A stretch of 64,000 nucleotides of DNA from Pseudomonas sp. (GTDB lineage Bacteria > Pseudomonadota > Gammaproteobacteria > Pseudomonadales > Pseudomonadaceae), in NCBI GenBank assembly GCA_033720015.1, contig JAWWDH010000001.1:38097-102096 (forward strand), given 5' to 3'. Made by a program: the position numbers and the translations under genes. How positions within the stretch are numbered: position 1 is the first letter of the stretch; every line of letters begins with the position of its first letter. Below the pieces are notes generated by a model that was given only the letters and a program-made list of their open reading frames with translations, was not told the origin of the DNA and did no database searches. This document shows positions 1,990 through 32,985 of the stretch, piece by piece.

Positions 1990-2568
1990 TGCTTCCTTCC
2001 CCTTGATTGAGCATGGCCTGAACCTCGGCCGCAGTAATGATGAACCCCCGCTTGAGTAGGCTCAGGCGCAGGGTGTGGATGAACAGGTCCGGTGAGGGCT
2101 TTAATCCCAGGAGGATGATTTGTTCCTGGTCGTCCAACCCATGGATCAGACAGTAGTAGTCCACCGCCTGGTTAAACGCCTCGTCGAAACCCAGCCGCTT
2201 GATCGAGAAGTCCCGCTGTCCCTTTCCATAGCCCGGCATCTGCACCACGAATACTGGCTTAATTACGCTCGCATGATGAGGCTGCTTGCCCCGTGCTACG
2301 CGGAACATCGCACTCAGCCCGGTGGCCAGCGCTCCAGGGCCAGCATGCGACGGGTTGATGTCAGCTGCGCCGCCCGCCGGTGATCCATGGCGCAGGCCCG
2401 CCACTGGGCATCCAGGTCGTGAGCCAGTCGGCTGCCGGGGGACATGCCGTATTGATCCACAGAAAAATATTTCTGCCTGAATTCTCTGGCGGTACCGAGG
2501 GTGGTGGCCACCCGGAAGCCAACAAACCCCGCCGGGTGTTCGCCCTCGCCGTAGAAAATAACTGCCAT
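1982..2568 (-). pseudogene. Conserved plasmid hypothetical (AP2-like DNA-binding) gene split by a single-base frameshift near 2352
   Basis: ORFs 2314..2568 and 1982..2404 join as ...AAQLTSTPSHAGPG... if one C is added to a C3 run. Confidence 0.55.
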
Positions 2569-2755
2569 GCGTATGCCTTTGCTGGTTTGAGGAGAGGATA
2601 TCCGCCTCGCTCGCCCTTGAGTCGACTAAAGCTGCACGAATTTTGTCGGTTAGTTCTGGCCATGCTCACCATGCCCGCACTTCTGCTCATCCCAACCCCT
2701 TCTCGCTTGGGATTCCCTGTCGCCACCGTAGGCTGAATCTCAAAGCACCAGGCAG

Positions 2756-3898
2756 GTGCTCAAGAGGAAAACAGCCATGCACCAATCACTCGCCCGCGCC
2801 CACCAGTTCGATGACCAGGTGGTTATCCCAGCACTGGGCCAGCAGCTCTCGCTGCTTGGCTTCGAGCCTGAGCCTGCGCTATTGGCTGAGGGCACCTACT
2901 TCGATGCGCCGACCGTGGATTTGGATAGCTACGACAACATCGTCGTGTGTGCCAGCGGCGGGAAGGACTCAATAGCCTGCCTGCTCGCGCTGATCGAGCA
3001 AGGGGCGGACATGAGCCGGGTCGAGCTCTGGCACCATCGGGTCGACGGTAACGAGGGGAGCACCCTGATGGACTGGGCATTCATCGACAGCTACATGGAG
3101 AATTTCGCCGCGGCCTTTGGCGTGCCTCTGTACTTCTCCTGGCTGCAGGGCGGCATCGAGGGCGAAATGCTCAAGCAGGACGCCTACTCCCAGCCTCACA
3201 TGGTTGAAACCCCGGGCGGAATTATCTGCCTGGATCGTGATACCACCCGGACATCGCCGGGCACCCGCCGCCGGTTCCCGCAGCAAAGCGCCAACCTGGC
3301 CACCCGCTGGTGTAGCTCTGCCGCCAAGATCGACGTGGGTCGCCGGGCCATCACCAACCAGGATCGCTTCCTCGGCTCTAAGACCCTGTTCGTCACCGGC
3401 GAGCGCCGCGCAGAGTCGAGCAACCGCAGCAAGTACAACCAGCTGGAGCCCCATGCCGTTGACCGGCGCAAGGGCCGCCTGGGCCGCCACGTCGATGCAT
3501 GGCGCCCTGTGCTGCACTACAGCGAGGAACAGGTATGGGATCTGATGGCACGTCACCGCGTTGAGGCTCCGGTCCCCTACCGCCTGGGGTGGGGCCGAAG
3601 CAGCTGCATGACCTGCATCTACAACTCGCCCAAGGTCTGGGCCACCATCCGCAAGTATTTCCCTGATCGGATCGCGCCGGTAGCCGCCTACGAAGATGAG
3701 TTCGGTTGCACCATCAGCCGGCAGAAAATAAACGTGCTGGATCTGTCGGCCACCGCCGATGCCTTCGAGATCACTGACCTGGCCGCCCTGGCCCAGGCCA
3801 GCCAGAGCGAGTACACCTTGCCGATCTTCACGCCCGAGGGCCAGGCTTGGCAGATGCCGGCCGGCGCGTTCGTGACTGAGGGGTGCGGCTCGGTTTGA
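2756..3898 (+). CDS. Phosphoadenosine phosphosulfate (PAPS) reductase family protein
   Basis: PP-loop SGGKDS; RWCSSAAK; TGERRAES; SSCMTC; start may be ATG 2777. Confidence 0.8.
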   Translation: MLKRKTAMHQSLARAHQFDDQVVIPALGQQLSLLGFEPEPALLAEGTYFDAPTVDLDSYDNIVVCASGGKDSIACLLALIEQGADMSRVELWHHRVDGNEGSTLMDWAFIDSYMENFAAAFGVPLYFSWLQGGIEGEMLKQDAYSQPHMVETPGGIICLDRDTTRTSPGTRRRFPQQSANLATRWCSSAAKIDVGRRAITNQDRFLGSKTLFVTGERRAESSNRSKYNQLEPHAVDRRKGRLGRHVDAWRPVLHYSEEQVWDLMARHRVEAPVPYRLGWGRSSCMTCIYNSPKVWATIRKYFPDRIAPVAAYEDEFGCTISRQKINVLDLSATADAFEITDLAALAQASQSEYTLPIFTPEGQAWQMPAGAFVTEGCGSV

Positions 3899-3922
3899 TC
3901 GGCCTGGTACCCACCAGACAGC

Positions 3923-3946
3923 AAAAACCCCGCATTTGGCGGGGTT
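3923..3946. terminator. Intrinsic terminator between convergent genes
   Basis: AACCCCGC-atttg-GCGGGGTT stem with flanking A-run. Confidence 0.7.
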
Positions 3947-3951
3947 GTAAC

Positions 3952-4692
3952 CTATTCCCGGTGTCCTCCATCGACCTTATCGACGTAGGCTTCAAAGAAC
4001 CAAACCGGGATATCATCAGTCAGATATTTGAGTCCCGTGCCGTCCGTAATCTCGGCCAACTCGACCGAGCTGGCCCCTGAGTTGTCGAAGATAAAGGCGC
4101 GATTGCTACATGCCACTGCCTCCGGCAACAACTCAAGCGACTTCGCATAGCGCGCCCGCACCGTGTCAGGCTCTACCTTGTGGCCACCGCCTTCGACACG
4201 GATTCTCACCCGGTCAACATTGATTTCGGGGTTTTCTGTAGAGACGAAGTAGAGGTAGGTGCGGTACCCAAGTTCTTGGGCCCTGCGCAAAATATCAATT
4301 TTGCTTTGGTGAGACATGACCGTTTCAAAGGTGAAACTTTCACCTCGGTCGAGTAATTGCTGGCGGATGAAATCAGCAATTACAGCTGCAAAGTAGGAGT
4401 CGACTTTCACAGACCTGTAGTCGATCTTAGAGCCCTCAACGCGCAGCAGTGCCGCTTCTTGAGTGCGCTCTTTCTTGATAAGCAACGGGTGCTTTGCGTG
4501 CAGCTCTGCGATCTGATCGGCAGTCGGGTCTATGCCGAATGCAGCCAGGTCGATAAAGCCGGTGGCTTTGGCTTGAGCTTCAAGCTCATCTGCATTCACA
4601 TAGGTTTTAATCTGCAGGATGTCTGCTAGTTCATCCTTGATCGTGCTTTTGCCTGACCCATTGGGGCCAGCGAACATCCGAAGTCTAGGCAC
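3952..4692 (-). CDS. Zeta-toxin-like / COG4185-type P-loop kinase-ATPase
   Basis: AGPNGSGKST Walker A; YVNADE; SFTFETVMSH; RVEGGGH; FIFDNS. Confidence 0.8.
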   Translation of the reverse strand: MPRLRMFAGPNGSGKSTIKDELADILQIKTYVNADELEAQAKATGFIDLAAFGIDPTADQIAELHAKHPLLIKKERTQEAALLRVEGSKIDYRSVKVDSYFAAVIADFIRQQLLDRGESFTFETVMSHQSKIDILRRAQELGYRTYLYFVSTENPEINVDRVRIRVEGGGHKVEPDTVRARYAKSLELLPEAVACSNRAFIFDNSGASSVELAEITDGTGLKYLTDDIPVWFFEAYVDKVDGGHRE

Positions 4693-4972
4693 TGCAGCCT
4701 GCAGCCTGGCTTTCTACCCGGCGAACCGTGACCACCTGTCCTACCGTCACCTTGCGGCGTGGCTTGGCTTTACCCACCACGGAGATAGTCCCGTCACGGG
4801 ATACGCGCACCAGGTCACCATTGTTGATCCGTAAAACGCCCTTCGTGCTGGATTGGAGAGCACGGGTATAAGCGGAGTAAGTGGCGACCATGGCCTTATT
4901 CGCAAGAATGCTCAGACCCGGATCTTTACTGTCATCCGATTTCTTTGCTTTGGACTTGGCTTTCACGTTCAT
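4685..4972 (-). CDS. Small basic protein, putative antitoxin/partner of the zeta-like protein
   Basis: 95 aa, overlaps the downstream gene by 8 nt. Confidence 0.55.
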   Translation of the reverse strand: MNVKAKSKAKKSDDSKDPGLSILANKAMVATYSAYTRALQSSTKGVLRINNGDLVRVSRDGTISVVGKAKPRRKVTVGQVVTVRRVESQAAGCSA

Positions 4973-5065
4973 TGCACTCTCCAGACGAGCAATATGCTTT
5001 TCGCCTCAACTGGCATCATATTCAAAGCTTACCCGGTTGTCACCGCCGGCCCGTGCATCCCTCCG

Positions 5066-5661
5066 TTATGTTTCACGAACGGGGAACCCCGCATCGGCCA
5101 TAGCGGCAAGGGCCTGATTGTCATCCACCGGTACTGCCCAGGCCTTCTCCCCGTTGACCCAGCGTGTCCCTGCAGCCTTCGCCACCTCGCGCTCTGCATA
5201 GGGCACCTTGAAGCAGATCAGCGGGCGGGCGGGGTCAGGTAGCCCAACTCGCGAGCCTTGGCCAGGGCCTTGTCATTGTCCTCGGCCACCCACCAGGAAT
5301 CCAGCAACTCTGACCATTTGGCTCCCAGGCGGCTGGCTTTGCGGTTTTCCTCGAACGGGACATGCAGCACCACTCTCCCAGCCAGGGGATCGAATGGTTG
5401 CTCCCCGCTCCACTCCGGCGGCAGGACCCAGCGCCACGTTTTGAAGGTGCCGGCCGAGCCAATGACGAATCGCTCATCCTTCACCTCGCCTGACTCGAAG
5501 TCGTAGACGGTGGCGACTACGGTCGGATTGCCAAAGTACGGCCCTGGGCCCTTGAGCTCGCCCACCTCGATCACTTTGGCGATGGTGGTGCCCCAGGTTG
5601 TGCGGCGCACCCAGAATCCCGGCCGGCGTCCGTGTTCGTCGTACATCTCGTAGATGTTCAA
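5066..5661 (-). pseudogene. Protein with two DUF5710-like repeats, interrupted by a single-base frameshift near 5222
   Basis: First repeat LHVPFEENRKASRLGAKWS; after the apparent stop at 5218 the shifted frame reads LICFKVPYAEREVAKAAGTRWVNGEKAWAV...ET* ending at 5066. Confidence 0.65.
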
Positions 5662-7073
5662 TTGGCTTGTTCCTCTGTTGTCCTCACCCGAACAACATCA
5701 TCGGCAAAGGTCAGGCTCAGTTCCCCGGCGGCTACGGCCTGGCCGGCGCTGGTGACGATATCGCCCTGTGCGTCACGCACCAGGGCAAAGCCCCGACCGA
5801 GCAACGCAAGCGGGTTGGTCTTTTCGTATAGCATGCTGGCCATCTCCAGTTGGCTGCGGTCACGCACTACCCGGGCCTGGCCGGCAGACTTCGCCCGCCC
5901 GCCGGCCAGCAGGATCTGCTGACGCTGGCCGGCACAGAACTGCCGACCCAGCATCCCCAGGTCAGCTGCACGCCGATCAAGCAGCAGGCGCTGGCCACTG
6001 AGTAGCCGCCCCACCGCGACATCCACCCGACCCCGAGCCTGCAACGCAATCTGCTGCTGCCGATGGGTCAAGCCCCTCACCAGCCGGGAAAACTCACCCC
6101 ACCGCCTCTCAAGCAACGGCCGCTCACCCGCTGCCAAGGACAGAATCTTGGCCTTCCCTGCCTGCAGCCCGGTACGAAGCCCCGTTGCCTCAGCTATCAG
6201 GCTGGTCTTGATGAACCCGATGACCTTGGAGGGGGTGTCGAACTTGCGGTGCGCCACCAGGTCAAGCAGGCACTCGTCGATCTCGTGGCCAATCCCGGTG
6301 TAGACCGGGATCGGTAGCCGGCATACCCAGGCCCCAAGGTTGCCGTCATTCAGGTGCGCCAGATCCGCCTTGGCCCCGCCGCCGCGGATGATGCACACCG
6401 CATCGTAAGGATCGCCCTGGTGACGCTCATGCACCGCCCGCATCGCCGTCCGAATTGACTCCGAGGTGTCTTTCCCCTGGAAGGTGGCCGAGAAGTAGTC
6501 GAAGCGACACACACCCGCGTCATCAAGCAGCTGGGCGTCGCGTTTGAAGTCCGCAAGACCGGCTGCCTCGTGGGGCGAGATCACCGCAATACGCCAGTGC
6601 CCACCAGGAGCAGGCAGCTTGCGCTGCAGCTCGAACCAACCCTTGCTTTTCAGGGAGTGAATTATCTCCTGCAGCTTGGCCTGCATGTCGCCCAGGGTGT
6701 AGCTCGGGTCAAGACCAGTGGCATTGAGCGAGAAGCCGTACTGAGGCGACAGCTCTGCCCTGACCTTGATCAGTACCCTCATGCCGGCCTCTGGGAGGCC
6801 GCCAGTGACGTTTTTCCACTCAGCCATCACCTTGCCCGCCAAATTGGCGAACATCGTCACCTTGGCCTTGGCTACCTCCTTACCGGCCTCAGACTCGAGG
6901 ATGTCCATGTAGACATGGCCGTTTGCCCGCAGCTTGAAGTCGGAAAGCTCGGCTATAACCCAGCAACTATCAGGCATCGCCAGCTTGATCGCCTTCGATA
7001 CCTGCTTGAGGTAGGCACTGAGCGTCAGGTGCTCGCTATTGGCCACCAGCTGCCCTGCGACGGCATTCATCAC
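5658..7073 (-). CDS. xseA: Exodeoxyribonuclease VII large subunit
   Basis: N-terminal OB fold (WVIAELSDF...NGHVY), IAVISP, CIIRGGG..DLAHLND, VYTGIGHEIDECLLDLVA, DTPS, C-terminal P..LL.RGFALV. Confidence 0.9.
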   Translation of the reverse strand: MMNAVAGQLVANSEHLTLSAYLKQVSKAIKLAMPDSCWVIAELSDFKLRANGHVYMDILESEAGKEVAKAKVTMFANLAGKVMAEWKNVTGGLPEAGMRVLIKVRAELSPQYGFSLNATGLDPSYTLGDMQAKLQEIIHSLKSKGWFELQRKLPAPGGHWRIAVISPHEAAGLADFKRDAQLLDDAGVCRFDYFSATFQGKDTSESIRTAMRAVHERHQGDPYDAVCIIRGGGAKADLAHLNDGNLGAWVCRLPIPVYTGIGHEIDECLLDLVAHRKFDTPSKVIGFIKTSLIAEATGLRTGLQAGKAKILSLAAGERPLLERRWGEFSRLVRGLTHRQQQIALQARGRVDVAVGRLLSGQRLLLDRRAADLGMLGRQFCAGQRQQILLAGGRAKSAGQARVVRDRSQLEMASMLYEKTNPLALLGRGFALVRDAQGDIVTSAGQAVAAGELSLTFADDVVRVRTTEEQAN

Positions 7074-7273
7074 TTCGCCCCGCCCTGGTCACCGCCCAGG
7101 GTGGCGCTGAGTACGCTTTCGATGCTGCTCAGTCTCGCCAGGCAATACTCACGGGACTCCGCAAATTTGCGGGCTAGATCCTCCAACTCGTCGATTCCAA
7201 CCTGGTTGGCCTCAAGCCGGGACACGGTGTCGTTGATGAATTCCATGTGCTGCTCGTAAGTCTGTCGCTCCAC
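7070..7273 (-). CDS. xseB: Exodeoxyribonuclease VII small subunit
   Basis: TYEQHMEFINDTVSRLE..VGIDEL; 67 aa helical protein overlapping the xseA start by 4 nt. Confidence 0.85.
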   Translation of the reverse strand: MERQTYEQHMEFINDTVSRLEANQVGIDELEDLARKFAESREYCLARLSSIESVLSATLGGDQGGAK

Positions 7274-7458
7274 GTTAAAACTCCTTCCTGTTCAGGGCAC
7301 AGAGCGCACCCGGGCAATAGCTGGATTGTCTCTTTGTTCCGGGCAAAACCCAAACCTACGCTGGCTGTTTATTGCTCAACCACCCTCAGGCCAGCACAGC
7401 CAACCGGCCCACTGGGTTATCCACAGACTTACTCAGGTTTTCGGTGGACAACGCCAGC

Positions 7459-7484
7459 AAAAAGAAAGCCCGCTTAAAGCGGGC
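7459..7484 (-). terminator. Intrinsic terminator
   Basis: GCCCGC-tttaa-GCGGGC followed by TTTCTTTTTG on the minus strand. Confidence 0.7.
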
Positions 7485-7496
7485 CGGTTTGTTCGA

Positions 7497-8042
7497 TCAG
7501 TCCTGCCGCCCACTGGCTTCACCCGGGATCTTGATCGTCGGCCTCGGCAGCAGTGCTTGATATCGAGCATTGGCCTCAGGCAGCTCACTATCCTTAATCC
7601 AGGCCAGCATTAACGCGGCATCCCACTCAGCCTCCGGGGCCTGATGCATCTGGTACATCAGGTCATTCCAACCATATATATCGAGAGGTTTGTAACCTGC
7701 TAGCTTGGAGGCGATAAATCCAACCCAGGTTTGCTGGGTGAGACGGTGCTTATTCAACGCATGCTCGAACACCTTCGACACTATAAACAGCACCATCAGC
7801 GTCACGAACCAGAATCCGACATCGGGGTTTGGTGCATACAGCTGGTATATGGCGGTCAATCCGGCCCCAAATGCTGACACCCAACCGATATAATAGAGGA
7901 AACTGCACATCCTTTCATAAGCCATATCTCGCGGCCCATGTCCAGAACCGTTGAGATGCATTGCTATTGCATTCTGAACTTCCTCAAGCATGTTGATCTG
8001 CTGGTGTAACTCAACTACTTCACTCACTTTCACCTCCGGCAT
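7497..8042 (-). CDS. Hypothetical membrane protein (two TM segments)
   Basis: 181-aa ORF with two hydrophobic stretches, followed by a terminator. Confidence 0.6.
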   Translation of the reverse strand: MPEVKVSEVVELHQQINMLEEVQNAIAMHLNGSGHGPRDMAYERMCSFLYYIGWVSAFGAGLTAIYQLYAPNPDVGFWFVTLMVLFIVSKVFEHALNKHRLTQQTWVGFIASKLAGYKPLDIYGWNDLMYQMHQAPEAEWDAALMLAWIKDSELPEANARYQALLPRPTIKIPGEASGRQD

Positions 8043-8056
8043 TCTAATTCCTCATT

Positions 8057-8359
8057 TTATTCAATCAGTAACTGCTTCTCATCACGACCCATCGGCATGT
8101 GCAGGCTCACTTTGTTGCCCTGTTCCTCTCCCGCTATAATCGCGGCTATCTCTGCCAGGTTAATCTTGCGCCTTGCCATCTTGAATCCATGCTCTTCCGC
8201 CCGGGACGCTTCATCATCAGAATAATCCAGGTGGAATTCATCCGTCAGTTTTCGCGGCTGCCTCAATGCCGATTAAGCTTCGTATGTATTCAAAGACTGC
8301 GACAGCGCCAAACACTTCTTAATCTTCTCCAATTCCCGCGCTTTATCAATTTCCGCCAT
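8057..8359 (-). pseudogene. DUF2786-family pseudogene with an in-frame TAA at 8273-8275
   Basis: MAEIDKARELEKIKKCLALSQSLNTYEA*SALRQPRKL matches the DUF2786 pattern KIKKCLAL..S.N.HEA..ALRQA.KL. Confidence 0.7.
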
Positions 8360-25229: not shown

Positions 25230-26433
25230 CTTCACCACCCACAATTTCCGATCGCGTGTATTCACGTACTGCAAACTCAAGCCCCTCGGCTGTCACTACG
25301 GACGGTGCTCTCAGAATCTGGAACCGCTGGGCCATATCCGGCGGCAGCAGGTACAGTGGGGCGTCAATGGAATCTTGGGTTGCCTCAAACAACTCCCAGC
25401 CAGAGGCGGGAGGGATTTGCGTGGCCATCACCGTGACGGTTAGCCTGGCCCCGTGGTCGGCGTATTCGCGCCTGGCCAGCTCTACCTGCCATTCTTGGGT
25501 CGGGTCGATGACGACCAGCTTCTGGTTGAAGGGCATCATTTCCAGGGGATTTATCCGCCCTGCTTTCTGCACCACTTTGCCGTGGTAGTCGAGGATATCC
25601 TGCTCGATGATGACGCCGGGGTCGACCATACGCTTGGCTGGGACGGTGACAGGGGGCAGTGGTGTGCCGGTGTGAACTGTCCAGAAGCGGTCGATTGCCC
25701 GCTCCTTCATCGCTTCCATGTCCAGGGCTTCAATTCGTTCCTTAGCGAGCTCAAGCATGTCGGGCTCGATGATGTCGCTGGTCGGGCCATGCAAACCCAA
25801 GTCGGACCCGGGTTTCGCACCTTCGGTTACTGCGTCATCGACCAGGCGGGTCGAGCTTGTGCCAGAGGCCTTGACGATGAGCTTGTCTTCTTCGTCTTCG
25901 AGCACAATGGCCGGTACTGAATCAACGGAGTGCCGGCGGAAGGCCAAGGGATCGAGGAGCACGCTCACCTGACTCTGGGTGTCCTGGGTGAGCATGTGCA
26001 TCTTGGTGATGGCGTCGACCATCTTCATACCGTCCGGAATGCCGCGGAACATGATCCCGGTTGCCGGCCTGCCATCGTAGGCGGCCATGATGTCCTTGAT
26101 GGCGGAAGCGCCCATCGACCAGGACACGAAGATCAGCGTCCGCACCCCCTCTCCGAGGGGATGCTTTTTCTCTGAATCTACTGTTGGACTGGCTTGGCCA
26201 TCATCAGGCTGCTCAATGACCGGAGTACGCGCAGTAAGCTCTTCAAGCCAGCGCATCTCTGCAGGGCCAACCTCCTTTGCCGCTCGCTGGCCCTGTTCGG
26301 ACACAGACTTGGCCTGCTCCAGTACAGAGGGGTCGATTTTTCCGATATCGAAGGGCTTGATGCCCAGGTCGTTAGCTTGAAGTGTACCGGCCAGCGCCAT
26401 GCAGACGGCCAGCGCGAGGGGTCGAATCACCAT
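25216..26433 (-). CDS. traW: TrbC-TraW fusion pilus assembly protein
   Basis: TrbC-like FVSWSM..., LDP.AF; TraW-like G....IIEPDML, GRINPL. Confidence 0.9.
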   Translation of the reverse strand: MVIRPLALAVCMALAGTLQANDLGIKPFDIGKIDPSVLEQAKSVSEQGQRAAKEVGPAEMRWLEELTARTPVIEQPDDGQASPTVDSEKKHPLGEGVRTLIFVSWSMGASAIKDIMAAYDGRPATGIMFRGIPDGMKMVDAITKMHMLTQDTQSQVSVLLDPLAFRRHSVDSVPAIVLEDEEDKLIVKASGTSSTRLVDDAVTEGAKPGSDLGLHGPTSDIIEPDMLELAKERIEALDMEAMKERAIDRFWTVHTGTPLPPVTVPAKRMVDPGVIIEQDILDYHGKVVQKAGRINPLEMMPFNQKLVVIDPTQEWQVELARREYADHGARLTVTVMATQIPPASGWELFEATQDSIDAPLYLLPPDMAQRFQILRAPSVVTAEGLEFAVREYTRSEIVGGEDEAL

Positions 26434-30302: not shown

Positions 30303-30647
30303 TTACATGCCTACAGGCAGGGCATTCAACACTTCGTAGACAGCGGCGGCAGCCGGCACGGTAGCAGTCATGATCGACTCGATAACATCCGGCGCAGCAT
30401 ACAGACCGACACCACCGCCTACGCCGGTCACGAACGGCATCAGCGACTGGCGCAGAACGCCGGCGCCGATGCCGGTCAGGATCATCAGACCAATCAGGAT
30501 GCGGCCCAGGGTGCCTTGCATCCAGTCAGTCAGGGTTATCCAGACGCTATCGAAGGTGTCACCACCGGTACCGGCCAGGGCGGTACCAGCGATCATCATT
30601 GCAACGGCCAGGGCGAGTGTGTTCAGAGTGGTTTTGCTTAATTGCAT
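30303..30647 (-). CDS. traA: Conjugative pilin TraA
   Basis: Signal peptide; GTGGDTFDSVWITLTDWMQGTLGR; two hydrophobic helices. Confidence 0.9.
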   Translation of the reverse strand: MQLSKTTLNTLALAVAMMIAGTALAGTGGDTFDSVWITLTDWMQGTLGRILIGLMILTGIGAGVLRQSLMPFVTGVGGGVGLYAAPDVIESIMTATVPAAAAVYEVLNALPVGM

Positions 30648-30730
30648 GGGGTAAAGCTCCTTTAGATATACGCAGGGCCTGCGCTCGTCATGCATTTTTC
30701 CAAAGGAGGGGTGGCTAATTGGGCGGTTAT

Positions 30731-30749
30731 TCGGCCACTTTGTTGTGAG
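30731..30749 (-). promoter_or_regulatory. Degenerate transfer-regulon box upstream of traA
   Basis: TCGGCCA-CTTTG-TTGTGAG, resembling the traK copy. Confidence 0.4.
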
Positions 30750-30760
30750 GTTTAGAAATA

Positions 30761-32956
30761 GGGTTTGGAGAGCAGTGGAACCAAAAACCAACGTAAGGCG
30801 TAGTTAGAGTTCGCCGTTGCCAAGAACCGGGCGGTTATCCAGACGATGAACTCCGTTGCCCTTCATAAATTGTCCGCCCGATGCCGCTAAGGCATCTGCA
30901 GACGCTGTCTAGTAGGATTGCGCCCACCAGAAGCGGTTCTGTCTCCGGGGTCACGCCAAGCGCGCTGAGTGATTTCTGTATCTCTGTCTTCGAGGGCAGA
31001 TGGGCATCCCCTAAACGCAGGCCATAGGCGATGTGTAACGGCCCCATGATCCTGTAGGCAGCTTCCTTGTCGCAGTAACTTTGAAGGACCCGCTCTAGCA
31101 ACTTTAAACCCCCAAACTTCTCCTTCGGATCAAGGGGGAGGAGTGTTCGGAGCAGGCTAATGTCGATAGAGTCAGCGGTTAGCCTGGCTATATCTTTGGC
31201 AAGTGCGAGGATGCCGTTCTCTTTCAACGCCCGGAATCGGTGGCATTGCCCCAGGATTTGCTCGGCATGGTCATGGGGTTTGAAGAGCGGACCACCGAAT
31301 GATTCATCGAAGAGTGCGTTCAGCTTTTCAATTAGAACCTGGAAATCAACCTCGGGCGCCTTGGTGTGGGCAGGTTCGCACCTCTGTTGGGAGTCAAGCA
31401 GTTCTCGCGATGGTGGACCGTCGGGAGATATGTTGAATCCATGCCAGATTTGCTGCTGCCAGAGAGGCAGACGAGCGACGTCGTAGGCGTAGACGTTGAT
31501 TCGACAGTTTTCATTGATTCCGAAGTGTACGTAGTAGTCTGGTGAGCAGCTGATAGAGCCCGTTTCGGCGGTGTACCAGCTTAGCGAGGCGCCGCGGTAC
31601 GCAAGCAGCGCCTCGATGACTTCTGCTTTGAACCAGAGATACTTACCTACGTCTTCATTGTTGAGCTTGCTGGCCGGCGCCTTCTCACCAGCTGCGCCGA
31701 CCGAATAGTAGAGCTGTTCGGCAGGGGTATCCCTGCGAACACGTTCGCTTGCAGCGGCAGGCTCCACCCACTCATCGCGCCACAGCTCTCCCTCTACTCG
31801 CTCAACCGTGGGGCCGCCACGATCAAACTGGTACGACTCGAAATCAGTGTTCGAGTCGTCTTCTGGCCCAAATTCAGGTACGTCCTCGCCGTGGTCAACA
31901 TCCGTACGCCACGCCTTCATCACAGCAACGCGGCCAGGAATTGAGCCGTCTTCAGTGATTGCGAACGTGCGCAGCCCAAATCTTTCGGTCGCAGTCTTCT
32001 CAGTCGAGTTTTTGCCATACCAGGGAAGGTGGGATGTGTCTGCCATTATCTGGAGTCGCTGCCGGTATTGAACAAGGCGCAGGGCCAGCTTTCGCGCGCA
32101 GAGGTAGTCGCGAAGGTGTTCGGCACGGATTTCGATTGCAACGATACTCCCGCTTGGATCTCGTCGTTGCCGGATGACCTCGATATAGCCTTCATCGACA
32201 CGAAACCAGGAATCCCCTTCGCGCAAGAGGCCGAGCGCGATGACCAGGTCCTGATTAACGTGCCACTCGGTCTCGTGGGCTCCGTTCAGCCGATTCAAGA
32301 GCACAAGCTCAATGCCAACCGGGTCTTCTTTGTCGTAGTGCCAGTACTGGTCTGCGGGCTTGTAGCGGCCATCTTCGAAGGCATAGGGGCCGGGAACGTG
32401 GATCAGACCAATATCGTTCCAGCTCAGCGTGTCTCCGATCTCTCGTCGGTCCTGGCGAACGGCCAGTGATCCTACACACAGGGACTCCTCGAAATACCCA
32501 GGCTTCCCTTTGGTGCCACCGGTTGCTAGCTGCTCAGATTGCCGAAGTGGTATCCAGATGCCTGAGGAAAGACGCCGCCGACGGATCTCGGGCATCTGGA
32601 ACCAATCGGCTTGAAATATCTCTGACATAGGTGCGCCCCGGTGCTGTCCTTGTGGCTTTCGAGCCTACATTACCGGGGCATAAAATACCCCGCCTAGTCG
32701 GAGTTGGAACGGAACAGAAAGTGCATTTAAGCCCAGCGCCTGCCCGCAAACCCTTGTGGAGTCTGGTGAGTTCGGGGAAACCATCGTTTTGCCGAACCGA
32801 AACAGTCACAGCGTTCGGGGGCAGCGCGAGGCGCTGATAGCGGCCCAGAAAACTCGTTCGACAAAACAAAGTTCTGAAAACCGCCCATGCTCACGGCAGA
32901 GCTGAACTCTAATCTCGCCTTACGTTGGTTTTTGGTTCCACTGCTCCCCAAACCCC
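30761..32956. mobile_element. Non-autonomous Tn3-family element (mobile insertion cassette), 2196 bp, 5-bp target duplication AAATA
   Basis: IR-R 32919-32956 GGGGTTTGGGGAGCAGTGGAACCAAAAACCAACGTAAG (38 bp); IR-L 30761-30797 is the same minus one terminal G with one substitution; AAATA at 30756-30760 and 32957-32961; no transposase or resolvase inside. Confidence 0.9.
30835..32628 (-). CDS. Passenger protein, 597 aa, with a C-terminal helical HEPN-like RxxxxH motif
   Basis: IMGPLHIAYGLRLGDAH in an alpha-helical C-terminus; sole gene of the Tn3 cassette. Confidence 0.6.
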   Translation of the reverse strand: MSEIFQADWFQMPEIRRRRLSSGIWIPLRQSEQLATGGTKGKPGYFEESLCVGSLAVRQDRREIGDTLSWNDIGLIHVPGPYAFEDGRYKPADQYWHYDKEDPVGIELVLLNRLNGAHETEWHVNQDLVIALGLLREGDSWFRVDEGYIEVIRQRRDPSGSIVAIEIRAEHLRDYLCARKLALRLVQYRQRLQIMADTSHLPWYGKNSTEKTATERFGLRTFAITEDGSIPGRVAVMKAWRTDVDHGEDVPEFGPEDDSNTDFESYQFDRGGPTVERVEGELWRDEWVEPAAASERVRRDTPAEQLYYSVGAAGEKAPASKLNNEDVGKYLWFKAEVIEALLAYRGASLSWYTAETGSISCSPDYYVHFGINENCRINVYAYDVARLPLWQQQIWHGFNISPDGPPSRELLDSQQRCEPAHTKAPEVDFQVLIEKLNALFDESFGGPLFKPHDHAEQILGQCHRFRALKENGILALAKDIARLTADSIDISLLRTLLPLDPKEKFGGLKLLERVLQSYCDKEAAYRIMGPLHIAYGLRLGDAHLPSKTEIQKSLSALGVTPETEPLLVGAILLDSVCRCLSGIGRTIYEGQRSSSSG

Positions 32957-32985
32957 AAATAAGAGAGGGGGCCGAAGCCCCCTCT
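32957..32985 (-). terminator. Intrinsic terminator of the large surface-protein gene
   Basis: AGAGGGGGC-TTCG-GCCCCCTCT then CTTATTT. Confidence 0.8.

Follow-up and report, generated by a model that had tools for sequence, protein, structure and literature searches.

How does a lone gene come to lie inside the transfer region of a conjugative plasmid, between the pilin gene traA and the gene for a large adhesin, and what kind of mobile DNA brought it there? The question is posed by a 64-kb window of Pseudomonas sp. contig JAWWDH010000001.1 ("the window" denotes this whole stretch throughout), which belongs to a metagenome-assembled genome (MAG) that is 95% complete and distributed over 697 contigs. 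The gene is carried by an element that is very probably a non-autonomous transposon of the Tn3 family, assigned to the lineage of Tn5563 and of the Tn3-derived miniature elements termed TIMEs, and built, although now partly decayed, in the manner of the TIME composites (TIME-COMPs).

Anatomy and ancestry of the element

The element proper occupies window positions 30761-32956 (2196 bp) and lies between two copies of AAATA, a 5-bp A/T-rich target-site duplication; Tn3-family elements generate duplications of this length and, rarely, of 6 bp. Its left terminal repeat is GGGTTTGGAGAGCAGTGGAACCAAAAACCAACGTAAG (37 nt) and its right one, read as the reverse complement, is GGGGTTTGGGGAGCAGTGGAACCAAAAACCAACGTAAG (38 nt); the left copy lacks one terminal G and carries one G>A change. 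Tn3-type repeats of ~38 bp carry GGGG on the outside and TAAG on the inside; in this respect the right copy is canonical, and the left one agrees at 36 of 38 positions and has a GGG tip. The inverted arms extend over 83 nt (30761-30843 and 32873-32955) and are complementary at 78%, near-identity being confined to the outer 38 nt, and the loose Tn3-type core GGAACNNAAAN7TAAG occurs three times in the window, always within the element, against an expectation of 0.01. A chance inverted repeat was also considered and is ruled out by statistics together with homology. The sole long open reading frame (ORF), P0001, encodes 597 aa; other ORFs are short and overlapping (at most 146 aa), and GC content does not distinguish the element from its flanks. 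The initial annotation had described Tn3-type repeats with weaker inner similarity, a perfect AAATA duplication and a single passenger gene, all of which can be read directly; the span that it gave, 30756-32961, takes in both duplications, and the GGGG tip that it ascribed to the repeats is found on the right, the left tip being GGG.

TIMEs were described as 262-bp Tn3-derived miniature elements with 38-bp repeats, captured on Pseudomonas trap plasmids (Szuplewska 2014, PMC4133298). In BLAST searches against plasmids, the right-hand 250 bp of the window element align at 79-81% identity with a 248-262-bp non-coding element present on pWW0 (25441-25688), pGRT1, pADP-1, Azotobacter plasmids, pZM1P1 and pLM8, the last two being the plasmids of Polish mine Pseudomonas in which TIMEs were defined (PMC4133298); identity to locus L079 is 87%. 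This right-hand TIME is complete but for 14-16 nt at the outer end of the inner repeat (the left inverted repeat, IRL), where the alignment gives way to unrelated sequence, and its outer repeat (the right inverted repeat, IRR) is identical to that of the pWW0 TIME at 39/39 positions. The left-hand 86 bp correspond to the IRR end, not an IRL end, of a second TIME copy in inverted orientation; the pWW0 and pZM1P1 TIMEs align with it over 84 bp at 88% identity, and there are 75 matches in 88 alignment columns with the pWW0 IRR end and 71 in 89 with the element's own right end. Because IRR-type sequence is present at both ends, the element is traced to two TIMEs, and the label "TIME-like" of the initial annotation proves too cautious, since the ends are homologous to published TIMEs. 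A TIME-COMP is recognized by two TIME copies; here one is nearly whole and the second is an 86-bp fragment, and as judged from these alignments the element is probably a derivative of the TIME-COMP form rather than a textbook example. The stop codon of the cargo gene, TAA, sits in the TIME-derived GTCTGGATAACC, and the variable C-terminal tail of homologous proteins is absent, and for these reasons the captured non-TIME segment is taken to be ~1.86 kb in length, consisting of the gene, short of its final codons, and the 79 bp that precede it. TIME sequences are also found on related plasmids of the same backbone, as indicated by accessions shared between both BLAST listings.

The closest known element is TIME-COMP1 of Pseudomonas sp. 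ZM1 (pZM1P1, KJ940992), which transposed into a trap plasmid at a frequency of 6e-5 (PMC4133298). At 2469 bp, the corresponding pZM1P1 interval (L005, 1781-4249) has precisely the length published for TIME-COMP1; its IRR-type repeats point outward and its IRL-type repeats inward, and AAGGA flanks it at either end. Like the window element, TIME-COMP1 is formed by two inverted TIMEs with their IRR ends outward, is bracketed by a 5-bp direct repeat, lacks a transposase, resides on a Pseudomonas plasmid and is of similar size (2469 vs 2196 bp), and its outer repeats match the window element's right repeat at 39/39 positions. The two differ in cargo (a resolvase and a DUF1652 gene vs a single 597-aa gene) and in preservation: both TIMEs of TIME-COMP1 are complete (262 bp) and each is mobile alone, whereas in the window element the left is reduced to 86 bp and the right lacks its IRL tip. 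TIME-COMP1 was seen by experiment to move, whereas the window element is presumed to do so. TIME-RES is likewise a non-autonomous hybrid that kept the TIME repeats and ~60 bp beside IRR, lost much of the core and gained foreign DNA; however, it arose from one TIME and carries the Tn5563 tnpR gene and res, in contrast to the two TIMEs and the lack of a recombinase in the window element. TIME-COMPs bounded by TIME244, IS101 or MITESen1 and carrying resistance genes were reported more recently (Gomi and Yano 2026, PMC13367494). These are also transposase-less Tn3-type composites (1-11 kb, mostly inverted, with 5-bp A/T-rich repeats), but their hosts are Enterobacteriaceae, their lineages Tn21/Tn3 and their cargo resistance genes, whereas the window element is from Pseudomonas, belongs to the Tn5563/Tn5044 lineage, carries an uncharacterized gene and has one decayed arm. 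Finally, Tn5563 (6253 bp; mer genes, PIN-domain gene, tnpA, tnpR) is autonomous, unlike the window element, and has nothing in common with it beyond the repeats, which are 37/38 identical, and a palindrome discussed below.

The kind of element, a TIME-COMP, is thus known, and the cargo is new. TIMEs and TIME-COMPs are seldom annotated, having been documented from captures on Pseudomonas trap plasmids and lately around resistance genes of Enterobacteriaceae. The present locus offers a clean natural case in which a TIME vehicle put an uncharacterized gene inside a conjugative transfer region without breaking that region, and it illustrates decay of a composite until the outer repeats and one putative res site remain. 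Its value rests mainly on the cargo and on the candidate res site, a concrete sequence candidate for the site on which the 2014 paper speculated.

Table 1. Features of the element and its immediate surroundings (window coordinates)
Feature	Position	Strand	Remarks
Left target-site duplication, AAATA	30756..30760	.	Direct reading; matches 32957-32961 exactly; one A/T-rich patch at this place in relatives
Left terminal inverted repeat, IRR type, 37 nt	30761..30797	+	GGG tip; G>A ~10 nt from the tip
86-bp TIME fragment (IRR end and subterminal sequence)	30761..30846	+	Inverted relative to the right TIME; supplies the cargo stop codon
Cargo gene P0001, 597 aa	30835..32628	-	Same direction as the adhesin gene and traA
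Non-TIME spacer upstream of the cargo gene, 79 bp	32629..32707	.	
Weak hairpin and T-run within the 79-bp spacer	32687-32704	-	
Nearly complete TIME: inner IRL remnant, core, outer IRR	32708..32956	+	Alignment to published TIMEs
12-4-12 palindrome in the TIME core	32770..32797	.	Putative crossover site resembling res site I
Right terminal inverted repeat, IRR type, 38 nt	32919..32956	-	GGGG tip
Right target-site duplication, AAATA	32957..32961	.	Within the T-tail of the adhesin terminator
Intrinsic terminator hairpin of the adhesin gene	32964..32985	-	9-bp stem, 7 GC pairs; outside the element
traA pilin gene (context)	30303..30647	-	NF041281 TraA, 7.8e-32; PF04956

Another TIME-flanked module is present on the same contig, outside the window. 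An S-type pyocin DNase gene (PF21431, PF06958; 431 aa) and its immunity gene (PF01320) at G000:C1:10599-12345 lie between two solo TIME repeats (module at 6600-8345 of locus L004; IRL-type repeat at 6612-6649, IRR-type at 8306-8345), the tips of which both point rightward. This arrangement looks like a second TIME composite of the IRR-outward design, further decayed and now immobile.

The landing site in the transfer region

The backbone is that of an F-type, MOBH conjugative plasmid of the IncP-7/pCAR1 kind, and the genes near the element encode TraA (NF041281), a DsbC-like protein, TraC (TIGR02746) and a 1978-aa adhesin with cadherin/Ig repeats. In the nearest plasmid, P. aeruginosa pPae-WC20-001-01 (75.7% identity), the order is traV, adhesin gene, a 146-bp spacer, traA, dsbC and traC, with no insert, and homology with the window extends to position 30755, the last base before the duplication. 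The traA-adhesin spacer is similarly uninterrupted in genomes G080, G337 and G069, where it measures 80-100 bp and contains a terminator. Subtraction of the element and one AAATA from the window yields GGTTTAGAAATAAGAGAGGGGGCC, which aligns with GTTTTAGGCACGAAAATAGGGGCC of pPae-WC20-001-01 and CTGAATAAAGAGGGCCG of G337. The search for empty-site relatives that the initial annotation had proposed thus turned up four plasmids or genomes without the insert, to which the restored site aligns.

The element went into an A/T-rich patch that is separated by 2 nt from the foot of the adhesin terminator stem and lies 113 nt upstream of the start codon of traA. The insertion left the initial seven bases of the terminator tail as they were, all related plasmids possess a corresponding hairpin, and a conserved 108-bp block upstream of traA (30648-30755) is uninterrupted. 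The claim made at the outset, of an insertion between the adhesin terminator and a traA box that left both intact, is supported as far as the retained hairpin and, given the reach of homology with the nearest plasmid, the block upstream of traA are concerned. A sigma-70 scan found no sigma-70-like promoter for the cargo gene or traA, and no terminator was found between the two genes. As a separate observation, a GC-rich hairpin, ACGCAGGGCCTGCGCTC, is found at window positions 30669-30685, ~20 nt ahead of the traA start. Every related plasmid retains it although overall identity is ~70%, and it may be an RNA processing or regulatory element of the pilin gene.

Across the plasmid family, the traA-adhesin spacer harbors three unrelated mobile elements. 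In G343 and G005 (L013/L014; G343:C37, G005:C17), a 1.25-kb TnpB-only element at ~1990-3185 sits inside the adhesin terminator hairpin and encodes a 358-aa TnpB with Cas12f1-like TNB (PF07282) and OrfB_IS605 (PF01385) domains. In the Stutzerimonas degradans plasmid CP040459.1 (L161), a group II intron with an annotated ltrA reverse transcriptase/maturase, at locus positions 6353-7645, occupies the spacer. Because the TnpB/IS605 element and the intron also sit there, the spacer is a tolerated landing place within the tra region.

Mobilization, resolution and competing readings

Neither a transposase nor a DDE domain is encoded by the single ORF of the element, and no match to the Tn3 transposase family (PF01526) was found in the assembly, although with a MAG in 697 contigs this does not prove absence; the term "transposase-less" in the initial annotation agrees with both results. 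The 21-nt core of the repeat was found at >118 loci, mostly in Pseudomonas and Stutzerimonas, in a scan of one genome per species, and several of these loci are complete 6.2-kb elements. Locus L103, a 6253-bp contig with identical 39-bp repeats GGGGTTTGGGGAGCAATGGAACCAAAAACCAACGTAAGC at both ends, codes for mer genes, a 997-aa TnpA (PF01526, E = 7e-152), a PIN-domain protein and a 309-aa serine resolvase, in agreement with Tn5563a as published (6253 bp, 39-bp repeats, 309-aa TnpR; PMC4133298). The repeat of the window element is identical to the L103 repeats at 37 of 38 positions; the recommended comparison with genuine Tn3-family ends thus returned both a Tn5563-like transposon (37/38) and TIME-COMP1 (39/39). 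Transposases of the Tn5563a type have been named as likely mobilizers of TIMEs (PMC4133298), and Tn5563 is the likely transposase donor here as well. From the identity of the repeats to those of TIME-COMP1 and Tn5563, we infer that the element would be mobilized in trans by a Tn5563-type TnpA.

Among the 73 natural ends that share the core, 66 begin with GGGG, and single mismatches at positions 5-12 are found. Seven ends with the exact Tn5563-type inner core have a different outer part, AAGGCTTAGGGCGCAAT or AAGGCTTCGGGCGCAAT, without the GGGG tip, and these may represent a distinct subclass or internal pseudo-ends. Another transposase-less cassette with Tn5563-type repeats, 2.3 kb in length, was seen in Pseudomonas sp. 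ANT_H4 (L070; NZ_VOBG01000012.1, ~3891-6211). About 80 bp of Tn5563 tnpR-end sequence are present at each of its ends, and its cargo of an Hcp-like gene (PF05638), a DUF4225 gene and a small membrane ORF may be a type VI effector and immunity set; a clean 5-bp duplication could not be discerned around it.

Beyond mobilization, the TIME core contains a candidate site for cointegrate resolution. The core includes GTTCGGGGAAAC-catc-GTTTTGCCGAAC, a 12-4-12 palindrome, with an additional half-site GTTCGACAAAAC at 32856-32867. In the Tn3 family, a res site comprises a site I of two inverted 12-bp motifs with 4 bp between them, as in Tn3 and gamma-delta, together with accessory sites, and is recognized by the cognate TnpR. 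The same palindrome occurs exactly once in the Tn5563-like L103, at 5144-5171, 113 bp upstream of tnpR, and at the same position in the pWW0 and pZM1P1 TIMEs; the rest of the 64-kb window contains one loose single match only. In Smith-Waterman comparison with the region upstream of tnpR, the TIME core scores 136, as compared with 75 +/- 11 for shuffles. At the least, the crossover site of a Tn5563-type res is probably present in TIMEs, and it is here termed putative. A res function of TIMEs was a speculation of the 2014 authors (PMC4133298), and TIME244 is reported to carry a putative res site, a similar case having been argued for TIME244 and Tn21 (PMC13367494). A res site in the TIME would explain the retention of one whole TIME.

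Taken together, these features suggest the following course. Two TIMEs in inverted orientation, their IRR ends outward, would have come to flank a captured 1.86-kb segment with one gene, and inner trimming would then have reduced the left TIME to 86 bp and removed the inner-repeat tip of the right one. With the inner IRL deprived of its tip and the left IRL absent, only the two outer repeats could pair, which makes the 2196 bp the mobile unit. A Tn5563-type transposase supplied in trans, from a transposon in a former host or on a co-resident replicon, would have bound these outer repeats, and replicative transposition into the A/T-rich patch at the foot of the adhesin terminator would have duplicated AAATA. 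The cointegrate would then have been resolved by a Tn5563-type resolvase acting on the 12-4-12 palindrome of the intact TIME, or by RecA. The cargo would thereafter ride in the transfer region, and given that it shares the direction of traA, with no terminator found between them, its transcripts may read into traA.

Several observations weigh against this account. The 3-G tip of the left repeat is absent from all 73 natural ends, and the element may no longer be mobilizable. The empty-site relatives share only 70-76% identity with the window, and exact scans of JGI metagenome contigs recovered neither an isogenic empty site (26-mer of the restored site) nor the cargo/TIME junction (31-mer). 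P0001 is the sole member of its protein cluster, on a single contig, and neither the allele nor the cassette was found a second time. The order of events, with two TIME insertions preceding the trimming, is one that we infer. As for the palindrome, the proposed res role draws on similarity and geometry, and when the TIME core is compared with the whole transposon interior, the score of 136 does not stand clear of shuffles (maximum 135).

Some of these points favor a different present-day status, in which the cassette inserted as a unit but is now an immobile fossil, its left tip damaged (GGG and G>A) and its cognate transposase missing. The absence of a 3-G tip among natural ends (0/73), the lack of a PF01526 match in the assembly and of a second copy, and the two solo TIME remnants around the pyocin module on the same contig, which are clearly dead, all fit such a history. 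However, the perfect duplication and the 39/39 match of the right repeat to an active element make the insertion look recent, natural ends do show single mismatches at positions 5-12, repeated transposons often go unassembled in a MAG of 697 contigs, and a conjugative plasmid could meet Tn5563 in another host. We give present immobility somewhat less than an even chance.

Two other histories are highly improbable, to about the same degree. The element could be an internally deleted Tn5563-like transposon that lost tnpA and tnpR and retained the cargo as an old passenger, as its repeats are 37/38 identical to those of Tn5563 and as a cassette of that very kind exists in Pseudomonas sp. ANT_H4, with tnpR-end sequence at both ends. 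Yet the subterminal sequence past the 38-bp repeats is of the TIME type and not the Tn5563 type, the right end is a whole TIME with its own inner-repeat remnant, and BLAST of the element returned no Tn5563 interior; the subterminal alignments in particular largely refute a deletion origin. Alternatively, two TIMEs, which insert often, could have landed independently to the left and right of a gene that the plasmid already carried, in a spacer that attracts mobile elements, without any transposition of the unit. Against this, the cargo gene occupies this position in no related plasmid, the 5-bp repeat brackets the whole unit and neither TIME piece has a duplication of its own, and the cargo segment has been cut back to the gene, which no longer has its own stop codon. 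Insertion of a TIME-COMP derivative as a unit is the reading that we retain.

The cargo gene and its family

P0001 has >800 full-length homologues of ~590 aa and matches 1501 clusters at 50% identity in a representative library; hosts include Pseudomonas, Methylotenera, Sulfuritalea, Sphingopyxis and Serratia, and the nearest homologue is 73% identical. Within the genus searched, the family is rare and patchy (8/400 species genomes), and its members are always lone genes without a conserved neighbor. Among their settings are sites near integrases together with a KilA-N gene, a site adjacent to a PDDEXK gene of the GAPS4 type, the cargo region of an F-type element, where hipBA and a Lar gene are neighbors, and a position between Sphingopyxis housekeeping genes. 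TIME repeats are absent beside the three nearest homologues (five loci), and no cargo homologue is present in 80 loci carrying the repeat core. Because close homologues reside elsewhere without flanking TIME repeats, the gene was captured by the TIMEs and is not ancestral to them. Consistent with the boundaries given above, P0001 lacks the variable C-terminal tail of its homologues as well as its native stop codon, and the 79-bp spacer upstream is not conserved with the homologues' upstream regions. The locus thus flags as mobile cargo a large unannotated protein family (>1500 clusters at 50% identity; 2% of sampled genus genomes).

The AlphaFold model of P0001 is confident (pLDDT 92.7, pTM 0.81) and depicts a beta-rich part of ~400 residues followed by a helical C-terminal domain of ~190 residues. 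P0001 itself has no match in Pfam, PADLOC, NCBIfam or PHROGs, and 81 family members yielded no credible Pfam match and 0/81 in PADLOC 2.0. No relatives in the PDB were found by single sequence or profile, and a Foldseek search of the PDB and BFVD returned nothing below E = 0.001; the best match, Avs3 (8dgc; E = 7.7e-3, TM 0.19), is not interpreted. Two residues, R538 and H543 of an RLGDAH motif, are invariant in the 81 sequences and lie in the model at the end of helix 521-542. HEPN ribonuclease domains have an Rx4-6H motif within a four-helix up-and-down bundle, and the two residues provide a motif-level lead to a possible domain of this type at the C-terminus, although none of the 81 members has a HEPN match in Pfam and no HEPN structure is among the top 50 Foldseek matches in the PDB.

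As a tentative best guess, which we consider rather unlikely to be correct as it stands, the cargo is a stand-alone effector of the defence or abortive-infection (conflict) type. The broader proposal, that it founds a new single-gene system of defence, abortive infection or other conflict that TIMEs load into conjugative plasmids, is more doubtful still. If it were true, the conserved TIME core would be a portable res site for Tn5563-type resolvases, and a portable site of this kind would account for the retention of one whole TIME despite decay of the other arm.

Variants of the family differ in length. Four longer members (L169-L172, from G316, G291, G369 and G399) comprise 790-826 aa with an N-terminal extension, and no Pfam match was found in the extensions of those longer variants that were tested; another protein, P0252, is 1232 aa in length and carries just the C-terminal 285 residues of the cargo family.

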